64,000 nucleotides of DNA, from the IMG/VR virus record IMGVR_UViG_3300035547_000249. One strand, written 5' to 3'. Position 1 is the stretch's first letter. Each line of letters opens with the position of its first letter. The notes beneath the pieces are model-generated. The model was not told where the DNA came from, searched no databases, and was given only the letters and a program-made list of their open reading frames with translations. The stretch is from a virus (lineage: Duplodnaviria > Heunggongvirae > Uroviricota > Caudoviricetes). This document shows positions 39,879-59,960 of the stretch, piece by piece. The position numbers were made by a program, and so were the translations under genes.

Positions 39879-40451
39879 ATGTCAAAAGAAGTATATTTAG
39901 TTGTATTAAACTATATAGAGCCGACAGAATTTGATATGACTGGAGACAAAGAAGAATATGATGAATTAACATTCTCTTCAGATCAGTCAGAGGTTTATGT
40001 ATATAACACACTTGAGGAAGTAAACGAACATGTGGTAACAGAATCATTTGGAGAACCTTCATTAGATGGAGACTATATAAAAGTTTTCCATGGGGTTATA
40101 GTTCCTGCAAGCTATATACCTGAAACATTCAATGGGTGTACCCCTTTCTTATATGTGAAACACCCCCTAAGGTATACTGAAGATTTACATAAACATGAGG
40201 CTTATTTCAGAAAAATATCAGAAGGCACAGATGTTCTTGTTAAAGTAATAGAAGAACTGATGACTTATCATGTTTATGACTCTTTAAAGGGTAGGTCATA
40301 TAAACTCATTATTAAGGACGCAAACATATTTCTTGGTTATGAGCTCCAAATGGCTTTACACTGTCCAGAACAAAGCTCTGATGAAGAGGCTATATACAGA
40401 ATTAAAAAATTGAGAGACAAGATATTATCAAACAATAATCAGGAGAAATGA
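39879..40451 (+). CDS. hypothetical acidic protein
   Basis: ORF only. Confidence 0.45.
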   Translation: MSKEVYLVVLNYIEPTEFDMTGDKEEYDELTFSSDQSEVYVYNTLEEVNEHVVTESFGEPSLDGDYIKVFHGVIVPASYIPETFNGCTPFLYVKHPLRYTEDLHKHEAYFRKISEGTDVLVKVIEELMTYHVYDSLKGRSYKLIIKDANIFLGYELQMALHCPEQSSDEEAIYRIKKLRDKILSNNNQEK

Positions 40452-40876
40452 TAATGACAACAAATGTAAAATTAAAGATATATGAAGATGATGATAAAAA
40501 AGAAAAGCATGTTCTTATCGGAAGATTGCTTGGAGCAGTAAGCACTGAAGAAGCAAAACATTTGGTAGGTAACCTAAAAATAGCAGCAAAGGTATCCACT
40601 GCTGAGTCAAAAAGTATAGAAGATGTCCAAAAAGCACTGCTTAAAGGCATTAACACAAAAGAAAATGATGACGGTACAGACAGAATTGTTTTGGCTATAA
40701 AACAAATTTCATCTCCCGAAACCAATATTATGTTGGATACTTTTACCAGACAATTGTTTGTAAGCGACAGAGTAAGTATGGTAAAAGAATCTCATATAAA
40801 ACCAGGAAGAAACGGGTCTAGGATGACGTTGTGGTGCAGAAAAGAATCGCTCATAATCTGTGAAGAGGAGGAATAA
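40448..40876 (+). CDS. hypothetical protein
   Basis: RBS CAGGAGAA; ATGA overlap. Confidence 0.45.
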   Translation: MIMTTNVKLKIYEDDDKKEKHVLIGRLLGAVSTEEAKHLVGNLKIAAKVSTAESKSIEDVQKALLKGINTKENDDGTDRIVLAIKQISSPETNIMLDTFTRQLFVSDRVSMVKESHIKPGRNGSRMTLWCRKESLIICEEEE

Positions 40877-40878
40877 CA

Positions 40879-41811
40879 ATGAGTATTAAAGTAACAAGTA
40901 ATATCAGAAGACCTGGTACAGATTTTTCCGTCATTGATGGAATGAACAATACGTCTCTACTTACAGGTTCAAAAGGAGTAATTTCCTACGTACTTGGTTC
41001 TGATCATGGATGCCCTAATGTGTTATTCCAAAACTGTGTTGTGTCAAGAAGAGGAAAAGGCGGAAAAGACAGAATGGAACAAGTATCGTTAATTAGTCCT
41101 TTGATTAACGTAAACTGCTTACCGATGGATATATTAATACCAGATCATGATAAATACAAACAACTTGTCACAATCGAATCAAACTTTGATTCTGTTGATT
41201 TAGACCATATGAGTGTTAATGGTTATATAAACTGGTTATTTGCCAATTTATTGTTTGTAAGAGAACTGGCAAACGTCAAATTAAATAAAAACAGCAAACT
41301 TCCCATGAAGCTGCCAATCAACCAAGACAGAATGATTCGTTTATGGAGAATTGATGATGGAAATGAGCTCATAATGTCTTTCATGGAAAACATAGTAGAC
41401 CTGTTTGAGAGCGGCGGTGATGAGGATTTAAAATATATTTATAACAACTATATTAACCACAATTCAGCATTAACTTCTATGCTGAGAGAGTTGTATCATA
41501 GAACTACTTTAGTTAATATAGAGTATAGAACCAAAACCATGGCGCTTGAGATTAGTGCATTAGAATACATTATGAAAGTAGTGGCGTCTAAGAAAGAATC
41601 TTTAAAGGGCGTTGATGTAGATGATTTGTTTGGCAAATTGAAAGATAAAAAAGAATTGATAAAAACCATGAAAAGCGGTTTGGATAAAAAACTGGATAGA
41701 AAGCTTTCTATGTTTAGTAAAAATATGTCCAATTATGCAAAAAATAAGGAAAAAATTATGGGTTTAAAAGTAAATAAGCCCATGATGGCAACAGCAACAT
41801 TTGACCTATAA
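40879..41811 (+). CDS. hypothetical protein (310 aa)
   Basis: RBS GAGGAGG. Confidence 0.5.
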   Translation: MSIKVTSNIRRPGTDFSVIDGMNNTSLLTGSKGVISYVLGSDHGCPNVLFQNCVVSRRGKGGKDRMEQVSLISPLINVNCLPMDILIPDHDKYKQLVTIESNFDSVDLDHMSVNGYINWLFANLLFVRELANVKLNKNSKLPMKLPINQDRMIRLWRIDDGNELIMSFMENIVDLFESGGDEDLKYIYNNYINHNSALTSMLRELYHRTTLVNIEYRTKTMALEISALEYIMKVVASKKESLKGVDVDDLFGKLKDKKELIKTMKSGLDKKLDRKLSMFSKNMSNYAKNKEKIMGLKVNKPMMATATFDL

Positions 41812-42670
41812 ATACAAAGTTGGGATGGTTATGATATTTCAAGGAGAAAAGGTGGAAGTAATAGCGTCTTATACAAACGGTAAAGGCGCTAAAATAAGAG
41901 TAGGCAGTAAAGGATACATAACTAAAACTCACCCAAATGTAACACATTTAACAAATAATAGGGGAAATCGCATAATTCTGATTCCTGCTGAAATAGTTTT
42001 TTCCAGGTATGGTTTTGAAAAAAGAAGTAGAAGCGAAAGAAAGCTTGTAGATCTTATATATCCTGGATACAGGGGTATTGGGAATAATAACATAACCAAT
42101 ATGAAAAAGTTTCTTGATTCCTCTATAAATTTTGCTATGTCAGCTAGTTCTGGTGACAAAAAGAAGGTAGTTGCGATAAGAAAAAGTCAAGAGCCAATAA
42201 ATCTATTATACAGTAGATCAGAAAGAGTGTCTTGGTTAAAAAGTGTTACAACCAAAGATTTAAGTAAATATACATATCCTATGGAATTAAGAGATAAGCT
42301 AAAATTTACAAGCGAAGTAGAGAGAGTGGACAAGAATGCTTTAGTTATTATAGAAGATCTTGTTAACTCAGTAATAAACTGGGATCATAAAAGAGAAATG
42401 CTATTAATTAATTGTGTTGCTGATGATATGGATATGTTCAAAAGTATATACATAATTATTAAGTCGCTCTTATCAAATACGGCTAGGCACTCAATTATAA
42501 ACATCAACAAAAGAAAAAGAAACAGGATTAGCACCGATGCAATTTACTCTTCATATCTACAGTTGGCTATGAATGGGTTATACAAATATCTGAGCATAGG
42601 TAATGCCAATGGTAAAATGAAAGATTACGCTTATAGGATTGCCAATATTTACAAAAAAATGGAAATTTGA
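41801..42670 (+). CDS. hypothetical protein (289 aa)
   Basis: ORF only. Confidence 0.45.
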   Translation: MTYKYKVGMVMIFQGEKVEVIASYTNGKGAKIRVGSKGYITKTHPNVTHLTNNRGNRIILIPAEIVFSRYGFEKRSRSERKLVDLIYPGYRGIGNNNITNMKKFLDSSINFAMSASSGDKKKVVAIRKSQEPINLLYSRSERVSWLKSVTTKDLSKYTYPMELRDKLKFTSEVERVDKNALVIIEDLVNSVINWDHKREMLLINCVADDMDMFKSIYIIIKSLLSNTARHSIININKRKRNRISTDAIYSSYLQLAMNGLYKYLSIGNANGKMKDYAYRIANIYKKMEI

Positions 42671-42688: not shown

Positions 42689-45600
42689 ATGGGCTTTGTG
42701 TCGGAAATGCAGAAGTTGGCGAATTTGGTAAAATCTCAATTTGAATCCAGAACAATCACTCAATCAAAAAGAACTGGACGAGATTTTAGAGATGTTTTAA
42801 TGACTAATAGTATTTCAAACAATATGCTAACCATAGAAGTAACTACAAACAACTCTAATCATGTTCTAACTATACCAGTACCGTACACTAAGAATAATGT
42901 AACACTAATTAAGAATAATGAAATAGAAAGAGCTGTTTGTAACTATTTTGATGTTAAAGCAGATAGAATTATTTCGTATACAGATATTATGTATGAAATA
43001 TTCATGGGAGATTTTTCTACTTTTGTTAAGGAAATAAAGAAAAAGAAAGTTGTTTTTGTACAACAACTTGCTTATTCTATTATTAATGATAATATATCAG
43101 TTATCATGTATAATCTTCAAAAGGCAATAAATGAAGTAGTAAATAAAATGCCTCTACATGAAACAGATATGTTGAGTTGGGTCATGAACAGTAGACTCAT
43201 GATGTTAGATTATGACTTTGATAAATTAAATGACCCAGAGCAAAAACTGTACTATCAGATAGATAAAAATAGAAAATACTTCAATAGGGGGTGGACATCT
43301 ATTGGATTATCAGACGGAACTCTCTCGGACAAGAATTATATTTTAACTGATAACATAAGAAAATACAGCCCCTTTGGATTAAAATATCATAACCCTCAAA
43401 GAAACCTTTACTCTACTTTATGTATGAAAGGAGACGAAGATCAAGCTATAAGAACTTGTTCTTATCAAGATCTTGTAGATAAAGGCACAAAGAGAAAGGG
43501 CTGGAATTGGTTTACTGCTTATGTTGATGTACCAGACACTTTTGAAGACCAAATATTGGTTAGCAAAAGACATTCAGATAAATATATTACGTCATACAGA
43601 AGAATTTTCTGTTATGGTGATGTTTTAGTAAAAGTCGGTCAACACATAAAGTTTGGGCAGAAATTATGTAAATCCATAGACGGAAAAGTAACAAGATATG
43701 AAATAAGAGCAGATAACTCTAAAGTTATTAATATAAAGTCAGAAAAAGTGGTAATAGGGGGAAAAGATAAACAGGCTTGGTCAATAAAGGTCAGACTGAG
43801 AAGAAATCTAAAGGATGCCACTAAAATAACCAATACCCATGGAAATAAAGGTGTAATCAGGCTGATGGACCTCGGTTACGCTATAGACCCTGTAACAGGT
43901 AAAAAGAGAGACATAGATGTAATTGTATCAGCTAAGACTATACCAAAAAGAGAGAATTTTGGTCAATTGTTAGAAGCCCTAACCAATGACATCATTGAAA
44001 GAACACACAAGAATAGAAAAGTACACCGTACCGGAAGTTCTTGGACTTCTTCAGATCAAAGTATTGGAGTAACACACAGGTGTGAACATGAGAGAAAACA
44101 TGTAGTGATCCAAGATGACTTTGATCCAGGAGTAGAAAACATAAAAAGAAACCTTACCTCTTTAGGTTTTAATGAAACCTTGAGTTGGAAATGCAATACC
44201 TATATAGGAGAAGTAAATGCCTGTTGTGGTAATGTTTTCTGGGGAGTATCAAAAGAAGCAGAGGATCAGTTGTGGGAAAAAGGAGATTCCCTTAGAAAGA
44301 ACAATCAGGACTTAAGGACTGCTGGATTAAAACTATCCACAGTAGAATTTAAAGCGCTTGAAACTAATTTCGGGAAAGATAATTCCATTATAAGAGAGGT
44401 GTTATCTCATACTCAGGGATCTGATATATTATCAGAAAAGATGAGAATAACCAAAAGTAAATTGGGAGAATTCCCATCAAACACTCCTGTTGTAGATATT
44501 AGGGACGTTAAAACAATAGATCAAACCAACGGCACCATGTTTGATGAATCAGAAATAGTAAACACTGTTGCAGATGAGAATTACTTCGAAAATGGGTTTT
44601 TAATAAGTCTCCCATTAAAATATCAGACAGCCGTTGGAGTAGATAAGTCCTTAGATCACGAAGGCGGTGTTGTTTTATATGAAGGAGGGTTTGACCCGGA
44701 GTTATACAAACACATATTCTTAACTGACAAAATATATGTACCATATGGTATACTAAGAAGGTGTTGGAGACATAGTTCAGGCATGTATGGCATGAACCCT
44801 ATAACAACACTTATTAATAATGTAGTGGTTATGGCAAACAAGTATATTAATGACCCAGAAGACCCAATTAATATTTCAATGTATTATATGGCTCTTAGAT
44901 CTTACTTTAATAGGGTATTAAAATCCTTAGTAGGAAAGTCTGGAGATATTAATAACTATGCTCTGTCAGTAAGATACCCGTTTTCTGCTAAAGCAGTAGC
45001 TACTTTAAGTAGTACTCTTCCTGATAACACAATACAAATACACAGAAACATGGCAGAAATATTGGGAGCCAATGAGGGAGATTTCTTGTTAGTAGAAAGA
45101 TTCCCGTGCTTGGGTTTCATGGGTGTAAGATCACAAAAAGTTACTATTACCGACGATCCTATGTGCAAATATACTATACGAGTGAGTGGTAATAGCTTGG
45201 TATCTCAAAACCTGGATTTTGATGGTGATGTTATATATGTAGCGTCGTTTAAGACAAAGGAAGCTAACTCTTTATTAAAGAAAGAATGGGAAAATCCTAA
45301 TCAAGCATATTGGAGGCATGTAGATTGGTTGAATAATAGAAAAGGTAAACCTACGGTCAATTGTTTCAATTTTGATGATTATAAAGTCAAAGCGTTTGAG
45401 GATTTAGACGCTAATAGCCATTCAGAGATAATAAGTAAATCTACTGGTGTAAAAGCGTTGACGGGTCCAATGATGGCAATGGCTTATAATTTGATGAGGA
45501 TAACAGAAACAGTAGGTGGTCAAGTAGATCAGTATATGCAAACGGACATAGAAATGTTCATTGAAAAAGCTGGTCAGTCTGTATTTGAACAGAAACATGG

Positions 45601-45967
45601 TGGAGTATCATTACACGAAATTGTAATAGATGCAATCTGTACTGGTAATGTGGAATTACTGGTTAAAAGCGGTTTCAACGAGAATGTATCAAGATTTATA
45701 TGTGACGTTATAAAGATGAAAGCATTATCTCTTGGTATAAAAGACCTATCTTCATACCATGCTAAATGTAAAGAGTTAGGATGTTCAAATATAGTAAACA
45801 AGATAGTAAAGAACGAAAATAAATTATATTTTGCCAGCAGATCTAATATTGATTTGATCAGTTTATTGAATACAATAAACATCCCTTCTGTGGATTTGCC
45901 TAGCAGGATATTCAAATTAACAACTTTCGATAAATTCGAACAAGGAGAAAATTATTATGGCTATTGA
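42689..45967 (+). CDS. single-chain two-barrel (multisubunit-type) RNA polymerase: a beta-like DPBB (…ITNTHGNKGVIRL…) followed by a beta-prime-like DPBB (…QNLDFDGDVIYVA…)
   Basis: HGNKGV matches the RpoB …RHGNKGV… lysine motif and DFDGD matches the RpoB' NADFDGD catalytic motif, both in one 1092-aa polypeptide in beta then beta-prime order. This is the YonO-like arrangement; RBS TGGAG. Confidence 0.65.
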   Translation: MGFVSEMQKLANLVKSQFESRTITQSKRTGRDFRDVLMTNSISNNMLTIEVTTNNSNHVLTIPVPYTKNNVTLIKNNEIERAVCNYFDVKADRIISYTDIMYEIFMGDFSTFVKEIKKKKVVFVQQLAYSIINDNISVIMYNLQKAINEVVNKMPLHETDMLSWVMNSRLMMLDYDFDKLNDPEQKLYYQIDKNRKYFNRGWTSIGLSDGTLSDKNYILTDNIRKYSPFGLKYHNPQRNLYSTLCMKGDEDQAIRTCSYQDLVDKGTKRKGWNWFTAYVDVPDTFEDQILVSKRHSDKYITSYRRIFCYGDVLVKVGQHIKFGQKLCKSIDGKVTRYEIRADNSKVINIKSEKVVIGGKDKQAWSIKVRLRRNLKDATKITNTHGNKGVIRLMDLGYAIDPVTGKKRDIDVIVSAKTIPKRENFGQLLEALTNDIIERTHKNRKVHRTGSSWTSSDQSIGVTHRCEHERKHVVIQDDFDPGVENIKRNLTSLGFNETLSWKCNTYIGEVNACCGNVFWGVSKEAEDQLWEKGDSLRKNNQDLRTAGLKLSTVEFKALETNFGKDNSIIREVLSHTQGSDILSEKMRITKSKLGEFPSNTPVVDIRDVKTIDQTNGTMFDESEIVNTVADENYFENGFLISLPLKYQTAVGVDKSLDHEGGVVLYEGGFDPELYKHIFLTDKIYVPYGILRRCWRHSSGMYGMNPITTLINNVVVMANKYINDPEDPINISMYYMALRSYFNRVLKSLVGKSGDINNYALSVRYPFSAKAVATLSSTLPDNTIQIHRNMAEILGANEGDFLLVERFPCLGFMGVRSQKVTITDDPMCKYTIRVSGNSLVSQNLDFDGDVIYVASFKTKEANSLLKKEWENPNQAYWRHVDWLNNRKGKPTVNCFNFDDYKVKAFEDLDANSHSEIISKSTGVKALTGPMMAMAYNLMRITETVGGQVDQYMQTDIEMFIEKAGQSVFEQKHGGVSLHEIVIDAICTGNVELLVKSGFNENVSRFICDVIKMKALSLGIKDLSSYHAKCKELGCSNIVNKIVKNENKLYFASRSNIDLISLLNTINIPSVDLPSRIFKLTTFDKFEQGENYYGY

Positions 45968-46292
45968 TATAAACGAGTGTATTTTAAGTGGAACAGTAGT
46001 TGAAGACCCACAAATTGTAGGAGAGGCACCTAATGCCTGGGTATTTATGAGACTTATGACAAGTTATGTAAAACAAAACCCTGATGGTTCTTATTCAGAT
46101 CACGAACAGCCAGTATTGATAGCTTCTGATATCCAGAGGCACGTCACTACAGCACAAAAATATATCAAACAGGGTAAAGCTTTGGCTGTAACATGTTACT
46201 ATAGAACCTGGGTAGCAGACGGAGTAGAACAACATGGTATGTTTGTTAAGAAATTCATTTTTGCTAAAGCAAATTATGGATCAAATCAGTAA
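45957..46292 (+). CDS. hypothetical protein
   Basis: ATGG overlap with the RNAP stop; ORF only. Confidence 0.45.
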   Translation: MAIDINECILSGTVVEDPQIVGEAPNAWVFMRLMTSYVKQNPDGSYSDHEQPVLIASDIQRHVTTAQKYIKQGKALAVTCYYRTWVADGVEQHGMFVKKFIFAKANYGSNQ

Positions 46293-46677: not shown

Positions 46678-46947
46678 ATGAGTAAAATAAATAAAGACGG
46701 TATACCGATAGGAACAAATTTACATTCTGCAATTAAATTTCCAGACGGTAAAGTTCCTGTAACAATAACTGCTTATAGAAAATTTTACAAACTCACAGAA
46801 GTGGGAGGCACTGATATAACGCAAGGTAAAGAGTTCAATTCTTTGTCTTCTGCAGCAGAATTTTTCAGTAGAGTAAAAAGAATTAATGGTTGGAATTATT
46901 GGAAATTAAAATCAGGAAATACAGCTAAAGAGGAGTTTAGGGGATAA
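46678..46947 (+). CDS. hypothetical protein
   Basis: RBS AAGGAA; ORF only. Confidence 0.45.
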   Translation: MSKINKDGIPIGTNLHSAIKFPDGKVPVTITAYRKFYKLTEVGGTDITQGKEFNSLSSAAEFFSRVKRINGWNYWKLKSGNTAKEEFRG

Positions 46948-47396
46948 TGCTAAGTAAAGAGGATTTCTTCAGATTTTATTGCTGCTCTTGTTTAGGGTGT
47001 AGAGCCTATTCAGCACTAAACTTTTGCTATAGGGGTTATTTAGTTTCTCCAGAAGCCTTTAATGTGTCTATTTTTACAAAAATAAAAATGAATAGGGGAG
47101 ACTTACTTTCAATAATCCAAGGTGATTATAGTATAAAAAACATAAGGAAACGTAAAGTATTTAAAATGGTATTTTGCGATAATCTTAATTGTCCAAGATG
47201 TTTTGCTGATGACATAGATATTGACTTATGTGCTTATGATTTTGGCGGAAAAACAATTAATCAAGAAGAACAATATGATGAGGTTGAAGATGAAAAAAAC
47301 GAAATTTGTTTAATACTTAGCGACAACGATGATTTTAAAAAGGAGTTTTATAAAATAATTGAAGATAATAATAAACAACGAGATAAGGATAATTGA
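46947..47396 (+). CDS. Cys-rich (zinc-binding) hypothetical protein
   Basis: CCSCLGC…CPRC motifs. Confidence 0.4.
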   Translation: MLSKEDFFRFYCCSCLGCRAYSALNFCYRGYLVSPEAFNVSIFTKIKMNRGDLLSIIQGDYSIKNIRKRKVFKMVFCDNLNCPRCFADDIDIDLCAYDFGGKTINQEEQYDEVEDEKNEICLILSDNDDFKKEFYKIIEDNNKQRDKDN

Positions 47397-48768
47397 TTGC
47401 CCTGAGATATTAACAAAGAGACTTGTGGAAACATTAACACACGATAACCCGGAATATGTGAATGCAAAAAAGTATGGTAACAGTGTTTATGGAGTACCAA
47501 AACTAATATATAATTTCAGATTCGATAATCAGAAAAACATAGTGATACCAAGAGGTATGATGGATGAATTACTCTATATTTGCAAAGAATTAGGTATAGA
47601 TGTATCTAATATTGATGATAATAGATCAGTAGTTGATACTAAATATATATCTGATAAAAATCTTGCTTATAGAAATTATCAACTTGATGCTATGGTAGAA
47701 TTGGTAACTAATCACGATTATGGTATATTAGTGTCACCTGCTGGAAGCGGAAAAACTATAATGGGTTTAAGTCTTCTTCCAATACTTATGCAATCTACAC
47801 TATGGTTAACACATACAGATGCGCTGCTGAATCAAAGTATGGCTAGATATAAAGAGGTATTCCCAGATTTTGAAGAGGAAGATATAGGCATAATTGGTTC
47901 AGGAGAATGGACTATAGGTAAAGTTATAACCTTTGGAATGATTCCTACATTAATCAGAAATCTTGAAAAACTGTCAGAAATAAAAAATTCTTTCGGATTA
48001 ATGATATTGGACGAAGCCCATCATAGTCCAGCTTCTACATTTAAACATATTATTAATCAGATAAACTCAAGGTATTTTTATGGATTAACAGCTACTGCTT
48101 ATAGACTAGACGGATTAGAAAGTGTTATGTTTCAATGTATAGGACCAATAAGGTACGAAATACCTAAGGAAGAGGTAGTATCTCATGGAGGTATTATTCA
48201 ACCAAAAGTAATAGTAAAACAGATATCTTTTGGACCTATAGTTGATGACAACAATGTACATAGAATATCCAAAAACTACATAATAAACAATAATGAGAGA
48301 AATAACTATATAGCAAACGATGTAGTTGAGGAAGCCAAAAAAGGTAACTTTTGTATTGTTGCGTGTGGGACTAGAAGGCACTGCGACATACTATACAAAA
48401 TAATTAAAAAAGATTGGGTGAGGATTGGGGTAGCCACTGGTAAATACAATAAGAAAATAATAAACTCTGTTATAGAAGAACTAACTAAAAAGAGTATAAC
48501 TGTGTTAGTTACAACAGCTGAATTGTTAGGAGAAGGTTTTGATGTTGACTTTTTAAACAGATTATTTATGGCTACTTCATTAAGATCAGAAGCAAAGGTT
48601 GAGCAGTTGGTGGGCAGAATTCAGAGAACCCACGAAGATAAAAAAGACGCATTGATCTATGATTATGTTGATAAGAATATAGGAATTTATAATAATCAAT
48701 TCAGAAGCAGGTTTGGCAATTGTAGATATAATGTGTATAAAAGATTGGGGCTTAAAGTAGTAATATAA
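47359..48768 (+). CDS. superfamily-2 DEAH-box helicase
   Basis: Walker A …SPAGSGKTIMGL…, DEAH box …MILDEAHHSP…, and a C-terminal helicase motif VI-like …QLVGRIQR…. The start is uncertain because the ORF overlaps the upstream gene. Confidence 0.65.
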   Translation: MKIIINNEIRIIDCPEILTKRLVETLTHDNPEYVNAKKYGNSVYGVPKLIYNFRFDNQKNIVIPRGMMDELLYICKELGIDVSNIDDNRSVVDTKYISDKNLAYRNYQLDAMVELVTNHDYGILVSPAGSGKTIMGLSLLPILMQSTLWLTHTDALLNQSMARYKEVFPDFEEEDIGIIGSGEWTIGKVITFGMIPTLIRNLEKLSEIKNSFGLMILDEAHHSPASTFKHIINQINSRYFYGLTATAYRLDGLESVMFQCIGPIRYEIPKEEVVSHGGIIQPKVIVKQISFGPIVDDNNVHRISKNYIINNNERNNYIANDVVEEAKKGNFCIVACGTRRHCDILYKIIKKDWVRIGVATGKYNKKIINSVIEELTKKSITVLVTTAELLGEGFDVDFLNRLFMATSLRSEAKVEQLVGRIQRTHEDKKDALIYDYVDKNIGIYNNQFRSRFGNCRYNVYKRLGLKVVI

Positions 48769-49989: not shown

Positions 49990-51688
49990 CGATAAGAGAA
50001 GAAAAAATCTTACTGCACAAGAGGTTAACTACTGGAAATTAAATCTTAACAGAATTCTGAAGGTTGGCGCCGAATTTGAATTTAATCTTCCAGAAAAATC
50101 GTCTGGTTCATGTGAAGGAAATAGTTATGTTTGTTCTTGTAAAAACTACAGGAATAATGAAATGACTTGTTGGAAAGAATGTCAAACGAAAGAAATATGC
50201 GCAAAAATTCCTAACAAGAATACATGTGCTATTAACTTGTCTGGTAAATGTAAGAAGCAGGAGTGCGATAATTGTAAAGATTATAAATTTGTATGTCATG
50301 GAGAAATGTGCTCATCTTTCTCATCACCTTGTCTGGTATGCGACTCCTTTGAACCAGACTGTGATGTATGTAAATACAAGTCCGATCCTAAGAAAAATCC
50401 TGATGCAATTAGAACTATGTGTAGTAATTATTTTAATCCCAGTGGATCATATGGTATTATGAGCTCCTCAGGTGTTCATAATGTTACAACAGACGGATCT
50501 CTTCTTGGCAAAAAAGGAATGGAAGTTATTACTACTGGAAGAAGAATTGATTACTGGGAATTTTTCAATATGTCAAAAAACATTATTGAGAATTCAGTAA
50601 ACAAAGGAGCATATGTTAACGAAAGATGTAGCATTCATATGCATGTTCTTGCCAGCTACTACGGAAAAGTTGTAGGAACTGGAACAGCAAACAATCCTTT
50701 TACAAGTAATCAAGGCCATCCTACCAGAGTTAGCGAACTTGAGAAATCAATGCCAGAAATTATTATGATCAATTTACATCAGTTGGTCAGAAAATATCAA
50801 AACGCTATTACATGGATGACTTCCGGGCTTAGTGATACAGACAAACTAACCAGATGGGAAAAGTTTAGAGTATCTGTTCTTAAAGTGTCTCCTAACAATA
50901 AAAGCATGAGAAGCGTCATCCAGAGCGTTATTGACACATGTGGTGGAAGTAAATACAGCTGGATTAACTATAAGTTCTGTGAGTTTGACGAAAATGATTG
51001 GTTAAAGAGACTCCATGTTGAATTTAGAACTATGGACGGACTTCTTTCTCCGAGTGCGGTATCGGCTTTTGCTTGCCTATACTATGCTTTAATGATAAAG
51101 GCTGTAGAGTTATCAAGATATGGAGTAATTGATATTGATAATTCTGAGGGCGGAAAATGGTTAGAAAGATCCACCATTATCAAAAAAGCTTTGATGAATA
51201 ACTGTTCCAATTGGCAAGAAGGCAATAAATATGGCAGGTTTAGTGATACGTCTGAATTAGGTCCCTTTGTTGAAAAGTTGGTGGCTGAGTCATACGAACT
51301 TATTTCTAACCTTAAACATATTCTGGCCCCAGTAGGTCCTGCATATGAGGTATTGGAAAAACTGGCAGAATCTCCTTGCTCAGTAAGAAGATGTAATGGT
51401 GACTCTTGGGAAAAGATCGAGAGAGACCTAATGGTTGAACTTACTGAAGAAGGCGTGTTCGAATACGAACTCAATAAGCTCATTGACACAAGAGCAGTCA
51501 CAGGTACAAAGAGTGTATCCGACTGGTTAAGTAATGTGTCAGATATTATTGCTGGAATGAATCAGGTTAATACATCTAAAATGAAAAAACAAGAAATCAT
51601 GAACATGATTAACAACTATGTTTGTGAAAAACAATCTAATGGTAAGATGATTTGGGCTGACAAAATTGGGTCTGTCATTTCTATCTAA
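49964..51688 (+). CDS. amidoligase (GS/GCS2-fold), paralogue 3, with a Cys-rich N-terminal domain of about 120 aa
   Basis: …KVGAEFEFNL…, …CSIHMHVLA…, …HVEFRTMDGLL…. The N-terminus has more than 20 Cys in CxC/CxxC spacing. Confidence 0.5.
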   Translation: MENQVVFINDKRRKNLTAQEVNYWKLNLNRILKVGAEFEFNLPEKSSGSCEGNSYVCSCKNYRNNEMTCWKECQTKEICAKIPNKNTCAINLSGKCKKQECDNCKDYKFVCHGEMCSSFSSPCLVCDSFEPDCDVCKYKSDPKKNPDAIRTMCSNYFNPSGSYGIMSSSGVHNVTTDGSLLGKKGMEVITTGRRIDYWEFFNMSKNIIENSVNKGAYVNERCSIHMHVLASYYGKVVGTGTANNPFTSNQGHPTRVSELEKSMPEIIMINLHQLVRKYQNAITWMTSGLSDTDKLTRWEKFRVSVLKVSPNNKSMRSVIQSVIDTCGGSKYSWINYKFCEFDENDWLKRLHVEFRTMDGLLSPSAVSAFACLYYALMIKAVELSRYGVIDIDNSEGGKWLERSTIIKKALMNNCSNWQEGNKYGRFSDTSELGPFVEKLVAESYELISNLKHILAPVGPAYEVLEKLAESPCSVRRCNGDSWEKIERDLMVELTEEGVFEYELNKLIDTRAVTGTKSVSDWLSNVSDIIAGMNQVNTSKMKKQEIMNMINNYVCEKQSNGKMIWADKIGSVISI

Positions 51689-52543: not shown

Positions 52544-52609
52544 TGTGTGGGTGTTGGTATAAGATATACTTACAAAAATCCAATCTTAACACTAGGAGAT
52601 AAATAAAAA

Positions 52610-58174: not shown

Positions 58175-59161
58175 ATGACCCCAATAGGTAATGATAATAC
58201 AAAAAATAGAATAAATATGGCAGTTAAATCTGCAATGCACAGAAATACTTGTGTTCCTCACATGCTATTATCTGGTGCTGCTGGATGTGGTAAAACCACG
58301 ACAGCTGGGTGGATTGCTGGTATAGGACAATATGATTATATTCCAGCATCTCCTCTTGAAATGAAAACAAAAAAAAGTGTTTATTCTTTGCTTGAAAAAT
58401 TAAATACGGTAGGGTATAATGAAAAAGGTGATAGAGTAGGAAAAATTAAACCCACTATCGTATTTTTTGATGAAATACATCAGATGCCAATTATAGGTCA
58501 AGAAATACTTGGATTGGCCATGGAAAGATTTATATTGGATTCTGATCTACCAAACAAAATGATATGGTTACCATATTTCACCATAATTGGTGCTACCACA
58601 GACGATGGTAAATTAACCAAACCGTTTAGAGATAGGTTTAAGATGAGGTTCATATTCGAACCTTACAAAAAAGAAGAAATATGTAAAATGGTAAGATTAC
58701 ATGCTTACAAAAACAAGATACAAATAAATGATGAAGGTATCTTCAGTATAGCTAAAAGGAGTAGAGGGGTTCCTAGAGTAATGGTTAGTTACTTAGAAAA
58801 TATAAGGGATTTCATGATAAACTCTGGAAGTTGTATAATAACAGAAAAAATAGCAGAAGAAGCGTTTAAAATTATGGGCATAGATGACACAGGACTAACC
58901 AACGTGGAAATAAAAATATTAAAAACACTTATGAATAGTAAAGGTCCGATAGGGTTGGATAATTTGTCTATAGTAACAAATGAGTCTCCAAAAGCTATTA
59001 CACAGTCAATAGAGCCGTTTTTGATAAGAAGGGGTCTAATACTGAGAACTGGTAAAGGTAGGGAGTTAACAGAGGATGGAAGAAGATATTTGGAAGATAG
59101 AAATCATGTGAGCAATAACTCCGATAAAAAGTTTATAGATGCAAATTATACAAGAGGGTAA
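58175..59161 (+). CDS. RuvB-like AAA+ ATPase
   Basis: Walker A …LLSGAAGCGKTTTA…; Walker B …IVFFDEIH…; C-terminal winged helix …EPFLIRRGLILRTGKGRELT… parallels RuvB …EPYLIQQGF(L/I)xRTPRGR…. RBS AAGGAGG. Confidence 0.55.
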   Translation: MTPIGNDNTKNRINMAVKSAMHRNTCVPHMLLSGAAGCGKTTTAGWIAGIGQYDYIPASPLEMKTKKSVYSLLEKLNTVGYNEKGDRVGKIKPTIVFFDEIHQMPIIGQEILGLAMERFILDSDLPNKMIWLPYFTIIGATTDDGKLTKPFRDRFKMRFIFEPYKKEEICKMVRLHAYKNKIQINDEGIFSIAKRSRGVPRVMVSYLENIRDFMINSGSCIITEKIAEEAFKIMGIDDTGLTNVEIKILKTLMNSKGPIGLDNLSIVTNESPKAITQSIEPFLIRRGLILRTGKGRELTEDGRRYLEDRNHVSNNSDKKFIDANYTRG

Positions 59162-59162
59162 T

Positions 59163-59960
59163 ATGAAAAAAGATTTATACGATGTAGTAGACATCAAAGA
59201 AGTAAAAAAGGACAATAATAAGTCGAATTACCCAAAACATTTGCTAGGAGAAAGTGCAAAAGAAGCACAAGAAACATTTGAAGAGTTTAAGGGTATGATT
59301 AACAATATGGTTAGATCATACTCAAAAGCGACAGGAGTTCATAGAGAAGATTTATTTAATGAATGTATTTTTGCGTTAGCAAAGGCAAAGAGGGACTATG
59401 ATAAAAGCAAAGGTAATTCATTAAAAACTTATGCCAAATATAGTATGGTAGACGCTATATGTGATTATATAAGAAAGAATGTATCACAAGTAAATATACC
59501 GTCTTATATAAATAAGGCTCATAGGTTAATTAATAGAATAAAATTTATCACCAAAAATAGAGAAGATTGGTTAGATTTTATTCTAAATAATGAAATTAAA
59601 AATGATGAATTGAATAATTGCATAAATTCTCTAAAAAATATGTCAATTAGGTGTGGTATAAGCTGCAAAGATCTGGTTGAAAGATCTGAGTTCATGCCCA
59701 CCCACTTGAATGAATGTGATGTAGACAGTATAGAATCAGATAGAAGTAATGTAATCACGAAAATACTAGTAAATGATATTCTATCTAACTTATCTGATGA
59801 GGAAAAATTAGTATCAAAAATGATCATGGAGGATATGAACTATACAGAAATGGCAAGAAAATTAAATAAATCTGATTCATATATTAAATCTAAAGTGAAC
59901 TCAATTAGGGATAAAGCAATAAAAATAATTAAAAAGGATATTGTGAATGAATTCGATTGA
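59163..59960 (+). CDS. sigma-70-family sigma factor
   Basis: Region 2-like …LKTYAKYSMVDAICDYIRKN… and region 4.2 HTH-like …YTEMARKLNKSDSYIKSKVNSIRDKAIK…. Start taken at ATG 59163 after GAGGGTAAT. Confidence 0.6.
   Translation: MKKDLYDVVDIKEVKKDNNKSNYPKHLLGESAKEAQETFEEFKGMINNMVRSYSKATGVHREDLFNECIFALAKAKRDYDKSKGNSLKTYAKYSMVDAICDYIRKNVSQVNIPSYINKAHRLINRIKFITKNREDWLDFILNNEIKNDELNNCINSLKNMSIRCGISCKDLVERSEFMPTHLNECDVDSIESDRSNVITKILVNDILSNLSDEEKLVSKMIMEDMNYTEMARKLNKSDSYIKSKVNSIRDKAIKIIKKDIVNEFD

Follow-up and report, generated by a model that had tools for sequence, protein, structure and literature searches.

Two-barrel RNA polymerases are the universal enzymes of transcription. The cellular multisubunit enzyme (msRNAP) is assembled from separate beta and beta-prime subunits on an alpha dimer together with omega, and the reduced forms found in viruses (YonO, crAss gp66, P23-45 gp96/gp64, phiKZ/AR9) reveal which parts of this ~400-kDa cellular core are dispensable. 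The residues universal to two-barrel enzymes are the three aspartates of a DxDxD motif, the arginine and proline of an RxP motif and, in the beta barrel, one acidic and two basic residues (PMC2919709). The non-virion msRNAPs of phiKZ and AR9 (PDB 7OGP, 7S00) comprise four catalytic polypeptides and a fifth specificity subunit (PMC7598289, PMC13282480). YonO, from the Bacillus prophage SPbeta, is a single-chain, two-barrel phage polymerase of ~100 kDa without an HGNKG motif. It has a demonstrated role in the transcription of late phage genes, and its homology to msRNAPs neither extends past a few residues nor includes the trigger loop (PMC5467207). Two barrels per chain are also seen in crAss-like gp66, P23-45 gp96/gp64 and QDE-1, all of them phage-encoded except QDE-1. 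Natural fusions of rpoB to rpoC occur in some bacteria (supplement of PMC10770324); these are full-length and work with alpha2, omega and sigma. Finally, Orf6 of the yeast killer plasmid pGKL2 is an Rpb2::Rpb1 fusion of 982 aa.

The window analysed here, by which we mean the whole 64-kb stretch of DNA, covers part of a source genome of at least 118 kb. The source element is a phage; PHROG matches are spread across the window, and a search of it against Rfam gave no match. Its plus strand carries a single-chain beta::beta-prime fusion RNA polymerase gene at 42689..45967, encoding 1092 aa from an ATG start. Unlike the split subunits of phiKZ and AR9, this polymerase is one fused chain of ~1100 aa, and its similarity to those enzymes is negligible (no tblastn match among 50,697 phage records; E 0.04 for the profile against phiKZ gp71). 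Whereas the cellular beta and beta-prime are separate, here they are fused, as they are in the 120 listed homologues; the order is the same as in the rpoB-rpoC fusions, but the window polymerase is about 40% of their size and phage-encoded. It has the barrel order of YonO. It can also be likened to Orf6, in which a beta-like half precedes a beta-prime-like half in about 1000 residues, each subunit being reduced by roughly one half but the cell-type core kept (PMC2919709). We draw this likeness by architecture only, from motif order and length. Orf6 resides on a linear plasmid of a eukaryote, and eukaryotic Rpb2/Rpb1 are its presumed ancestors, whereas the best matches of the window polymerase are to bacterial beta, and the two fusions probably arose independently. 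The phage enzyme would be a second, independent case of beta-to-beta-prime fusion with reduction, and one that bears on the evolution of the large subunits.

The preliminary description of this DNA had called such enzymes rare. We find at least 421 clusters of homologous proteins, all metagenomic, on contigs of up to 330 kb; among the 120 homologues listed, lengths run from 1057 to 1244 aa and every one is fused. The family is present on 12 IMG/VR viral contigs (45-298 kb), for example the 238-kb IMGVR_UViG_3300028364_000014, and on one 330-kb JGI contig, Ga0613763_0052. No homologue of the polymerase was found by tblastn in the 50,697 GenBank phage records, and megablast and tblastn returned no close relative of this phage among sequenced phages. 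Our searches of the full-text literature found no published description of the family, which may nevertheless be among the 23 RNAP families of PMC10770324. An attempt to read the host from genome bins was dropped, as the six MAG labels were taxonomically scattered in the manner typical of mis-binned phage contigs.

Invariant motifs and predicted fold of the polymerase

The 1092-aa ORF carries HGNKGV at residues 384-389 (nt 43838-43855) and, 459 residues further on, DFDGD at residues 843-847 (nt 45215-45229). Neither motif recurs in any of the window's six reading frames, and a search of the 64 kb with the family HMM gave no second polymerase-like ORF. The pairing of the two motifs in one ORF, which had first drawn attention to this gene, is not due to chance. 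Pfam RNA_pol_Rpb2_6 matches residues 299-438 with 34.7 bits (cut-off 23.4), and RNA_pol_Rpb1_2 reaches 17.6 bits over residues 794-859, under its cut-off of 25.3. In an alignment of 45 homologues with 45-78% identity to the window protein, G385, N386, K387 and G388 of the first motif and D843, D845, G846 and D847 of the second are invariant. Indeed, all eight universal residues of two-barrel polymerases (PMC2919709), when positioned by alignment to E. coli beta and beta-prime, have invariant counterparts in the 45 sequences: D843/D845/D847 for DxDxD, R804/P806 for RxP, D287 with E286 for the acidic position, and K379/K387 for the basic ones.

The preliminary description had proposed that beta-type and beta-prime-type double-psi barrels are joined in one polypeptide, and had staked that reading beforehand on the embedding of both motifs in such barrels. 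Profile analysis and structure prediction both place them there. The model shows two double-psi beta-barrels in apposition, and its closest structural matches are the beta and beta-prime subunits, not the single-chain two-barrel enzymes. Domain limits given here were read from the DSSP string of this predicted structure. The beta-type barrel, with a short insert, spans 43499..44008 on the plus strand (residues ~271-440) and holds both HGNKGV and FEDQILV, the latter at residues 285-291 (nt 43541-43561). The barrel aligns with E. coli beta 1031-1119 (hhalign probability 80%, E 1.4e-5), and FEDQILVS pairs with E. coli FEDSILVS, which contains E813/D814 (hhalign E 8e-4); E286, D287, K379 and K387 are invariant in the 45 homologues. 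Further along the same strand, at 44321..44362 (residues 545-558), the conserved motif AGLKLSTVEFKALE, of the GEMEVWALE type, is the counterpart of the beta C-terminal motif GGQRFGEMEVWALE of E. coli. The segment hhalign to beta is weak at this point (E 0.044), and R543, G546, K548 and E553 in and around the motif are invariant in the 45 homologues. The family profile as a whole matches bacterial beta with E 8e-6. Sequence homology to beta reaches past the catalytic residues, a feature of the cell-type msRNAP lineage (clade 1 of PMC10770324).

For the beta-prime half, a barrel-wide hhalign in a restricted search gave E 3.8e-3, and the whole-protein comparison with beta-prime a probability of 0.5%. 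The beta-prime-type barrel lies at 44933..45268, plus strand (residues ~749-860), and includes ERFPCLG (803-809) and NLDFDGD (841-847), with the Mg-binding triad at nt 45215-45229. Its start, GKSG...RYPFSAKAV, aligns with E. coli beta-prime 331-355. Directly before it, a helical hairpin at 44798..44929 on the plus strand (residues 704-747; DSSP helices 704-721 and 726-747) lies in the model where the clamp helices of beta-prime would be, and is a candidate for them. Downstream of the barrel, the model has a helix of 33 residues and then a helical hairpin (45410..45667, plus strand), and G920, K922, Y933, N934, R937, Q968, K969 and H970 of this region are invariant in the 45 homologues. On the model and these invariant residues, the helix at 908-940 is a candidate bridge helix, and the helices at 948-993, with H970, resemble a trigger loop; the alignment to the start of the beta-prime trigger loop covers only 10 columns and is not significant (E 0.54).

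A conserved gene block

The polymerase gene sits in a conserved block with two paralogous unknown proteins, an SSB and an SF2 helicase, all on the plus strand. The two paralogues, up2 (40879..41811, 310 aa) and up1 (41801..42670, 289 aa from a TTG start, although translation may in fact begin at an internal Met), immediately precede it, and up1 orthologues lie directly 5' of the polymerase gene in nine other loci. Their paralogy is supported by hhalign (probability 95%, E 3e-8). The predicted fold of up2, an SH3/KOW/Tudor-like N-terminal barrel followed by long helices, resembles nothing sigma-like, RNAP-subunit-like or alpha-like, and up1 has no sequence match in the PDB. Before them, two small conserved unknown proteins at 39879-40451 (up4) and 40448-40876 (up3) recur in nine other loci each and have no match in Pfam or PHROG. 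As the searches turned up none of up1 to up4 in the four loci that diverge most, these proteins may be non-obligatory partners.

On the 3' side, an SSB-family OB-fold protein of 111 aa (45957..46292) begins within the polymerase gene, overlapping its stop by 11 nt. Its family profile finds bacterial SSBs in the PDB (E 2.3e-10), and it follows the polymerase gene in 11 other loci. A small conserved protein at 46678..46947, found in 13 other loci, has weak DUF4357/RAMA-like similarity (E 1e-4 against Pfam DUF4357, under the cut-off). The SF2 helicase (47359..48768; ResIII, DEAD and Helicase_C in Pfam) was linked to the polymerase gene in all 18 loci searched by tblastn, and its matches among sequenced phages are all distant (24-30% identity). 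No alpha- or omega-like neighbour of the polymerase gene was recognised. A universally linked 574-aa protein was considered as a missing piece of the polymerase and rejected, having no match to anything; its invariant Cys clusters and its E-x-E, H-x-H and E-x-R motifs suggest that it belongs instead with the neighbouring amidoligase/amidotransferase system.

Proposed role of the enzyme

Alongside the demonstrated fold prediction, motif invariance, family and gene block stands a reading of function, drawn from sequence and model. We estimate a probability of roughly 80% that the product of this ORF is a functional DNA-dependent RNA polymerase of the cellular two-barrel type, fused beta then beta-prime and made after infection. 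Such an enzyme would retain about 40% of the combined mass of bacterial beta and beta-prime. Its active site would lie between the two barrels, with E286/D287 and K379/K387 coming from the beta-type barrel and R804/P806 and the Mg-binding triad D843/D845/D847 from the beta-prime-type barrel, and the long helix and helical hairpin would sit where bridge helix and trigger loop belong. By analogy with YonO and the non-virion polymerases of phiKZ and AR9, the enzyme may be synthesised after infection and transcribe phage genes, probably middle or late ones, independently of the host core enzyme. The long array of tightly packed genes, all in one direction, would fit a processive polymerase that initiates from few promoters. 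The paralogous up1 and up2, encoded directly 5' of the polymerase, are the best candidates for conferring promoter specificity, and the SSB and SF2 helicase would be its likely working partners.

It is also conceivable, though unlikely, that the polymerase is packaged in the virion and injected with the DNA for early genes, like crAss gp66, the phiKZ virion RNAP and P23-45 gp96. Phages with two-barrel enzymes of their own often package one (PMC10770324, PMC13282480), and the AT-rich repeat arrays at 1-219, 1434-1498 and 1752-2213, on the left of the window, could provide an injected enzyme with early promoters. The gene, however, has genes of nucleic-acid metabolism around it (SSB, helicase, RuvB-like, RNA repair) instead of structural ones, the protein is free of the large extra domains of known injected enzymes at 1092 aa, and there is a single copy in 64 kb; none of these points is decisive. 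Less probable still is a role confined to replication, in which the polymerase would make primers or open origins by transcription with the SSB and helicase and would not be a general transcriptase. The overlap of the SSB gene with the polymerase stop codon and the linkage of the helicase would fit such a role, as would the fact that no primase was seen in the 64-kb window, but a primase may lie elsewhere because the window is only part of the genome. We know of no two-barrel RNA polymerase that serves as a dedicated primase. Against the replication role, an association of SF2 helicases with msRNAP genes is also seen in phiKZ-like phages, and there the helicases are believed to help with transcription (PMC7824862). 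Membership of the YonO / QDE-1 / crAss clade, which has only catalytic residues in common with cellular polymerases and which the preliminary description had favoured in the form of a YonO-type enzyme, can scarcely be credited in spite of the single chain, comparable size, common barrel order, phage origin and the DNDGD of YonO (535-539 of 839 residues), since hhalign to YonO gives a probability of 0.09% and the homology to beta extends past the catalytic residues.

It is tempting to speculate further, and we do so tentatively, that this is an undescribed, widespread lineage of minimal cell-type polymerases belonging to one major group of uncultured jumbo phages. The lineage would hold the whole beta/beta-prime catalytic core in ~1100 residues without alpha or omega. 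With up1 and up2 acting in initiation or assembly, and with an SF2 helicase and an SSB of its own, the polymerase would form a self-contained transcription machine. It would be the counterpart, in bacterial viruses, of the yeast killer-plasmid enzyme, and no smaller tractable model of the msRNAP core would exist. Because landmarks of beta and beta-prime and the cell-type fold are kept in a single chain of ~125 kDa, this polymerase could provide a far simpler model of the cellular active centre, and its use as a compact orthogonal polymerase is also conceivable. Routine annotation labels it a 'hypothetical protein' in many uncultured jumbo phages, and surveys that infer host-dependent transcription from 'no RNAP' may be missing this family.

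Sigma factor and gene junctions

A separate sigma-70-family gene, likewise noted in the preliminary description, is present on the plus strand at 59139..59960. It matches Pfam Sigma70_r2 (E 1.5e-7), PHROG 351 and TIGR02937 (66.4 bits, cut-off 42.9; residues 43-260, from region 2 to region 4), and thus comprises regions 2 and 4. Its likely start is 59163, which is Met9 of the ORF from 59139 and agrees with the start of the homologue P0122. A search reliant on shared words found only five homologues in a large protein database; there were none in GenBank phages, and none in IMG/VR by short-pattern searches of limited sensitivity with a single sequence or an alignment. As these searches, within their limited sensitivity, detected the factor in close relatives only, we dropped it as a family-wide partner of the polymerase. 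For the same reason, its most likely function is to redirect the polymerase of the host and not to serve the phage enzyme. A dual system, in which a phage sigma acts on the host RNAP while the phage runs its own, is a plausible hypothesis.

It had been suggested that conserved gene junctions, among them identical 28-nt leaders, could act as promoters for either system. The identity itself is real: AGGAGATAAATAAAAAATGTGTGGAATT occurs at 51688 and at 52594. Its reading as a promoter is not supported, as the element is made up of a Shine-Dalgarno site followed by the ATG and opening codons (MCGI) of two paralogous genes for class-II amidotransferases. Nor did a wider promoter search bear out the suggestion; no k-mer upstream of ~95 genes was significantly enriched after correction for multiple testing, and sigma-70-like sites numbered 76 against an expected 84 +/- 9. 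The left end of the window is occupied by arrays of repeated AT-rich elements.

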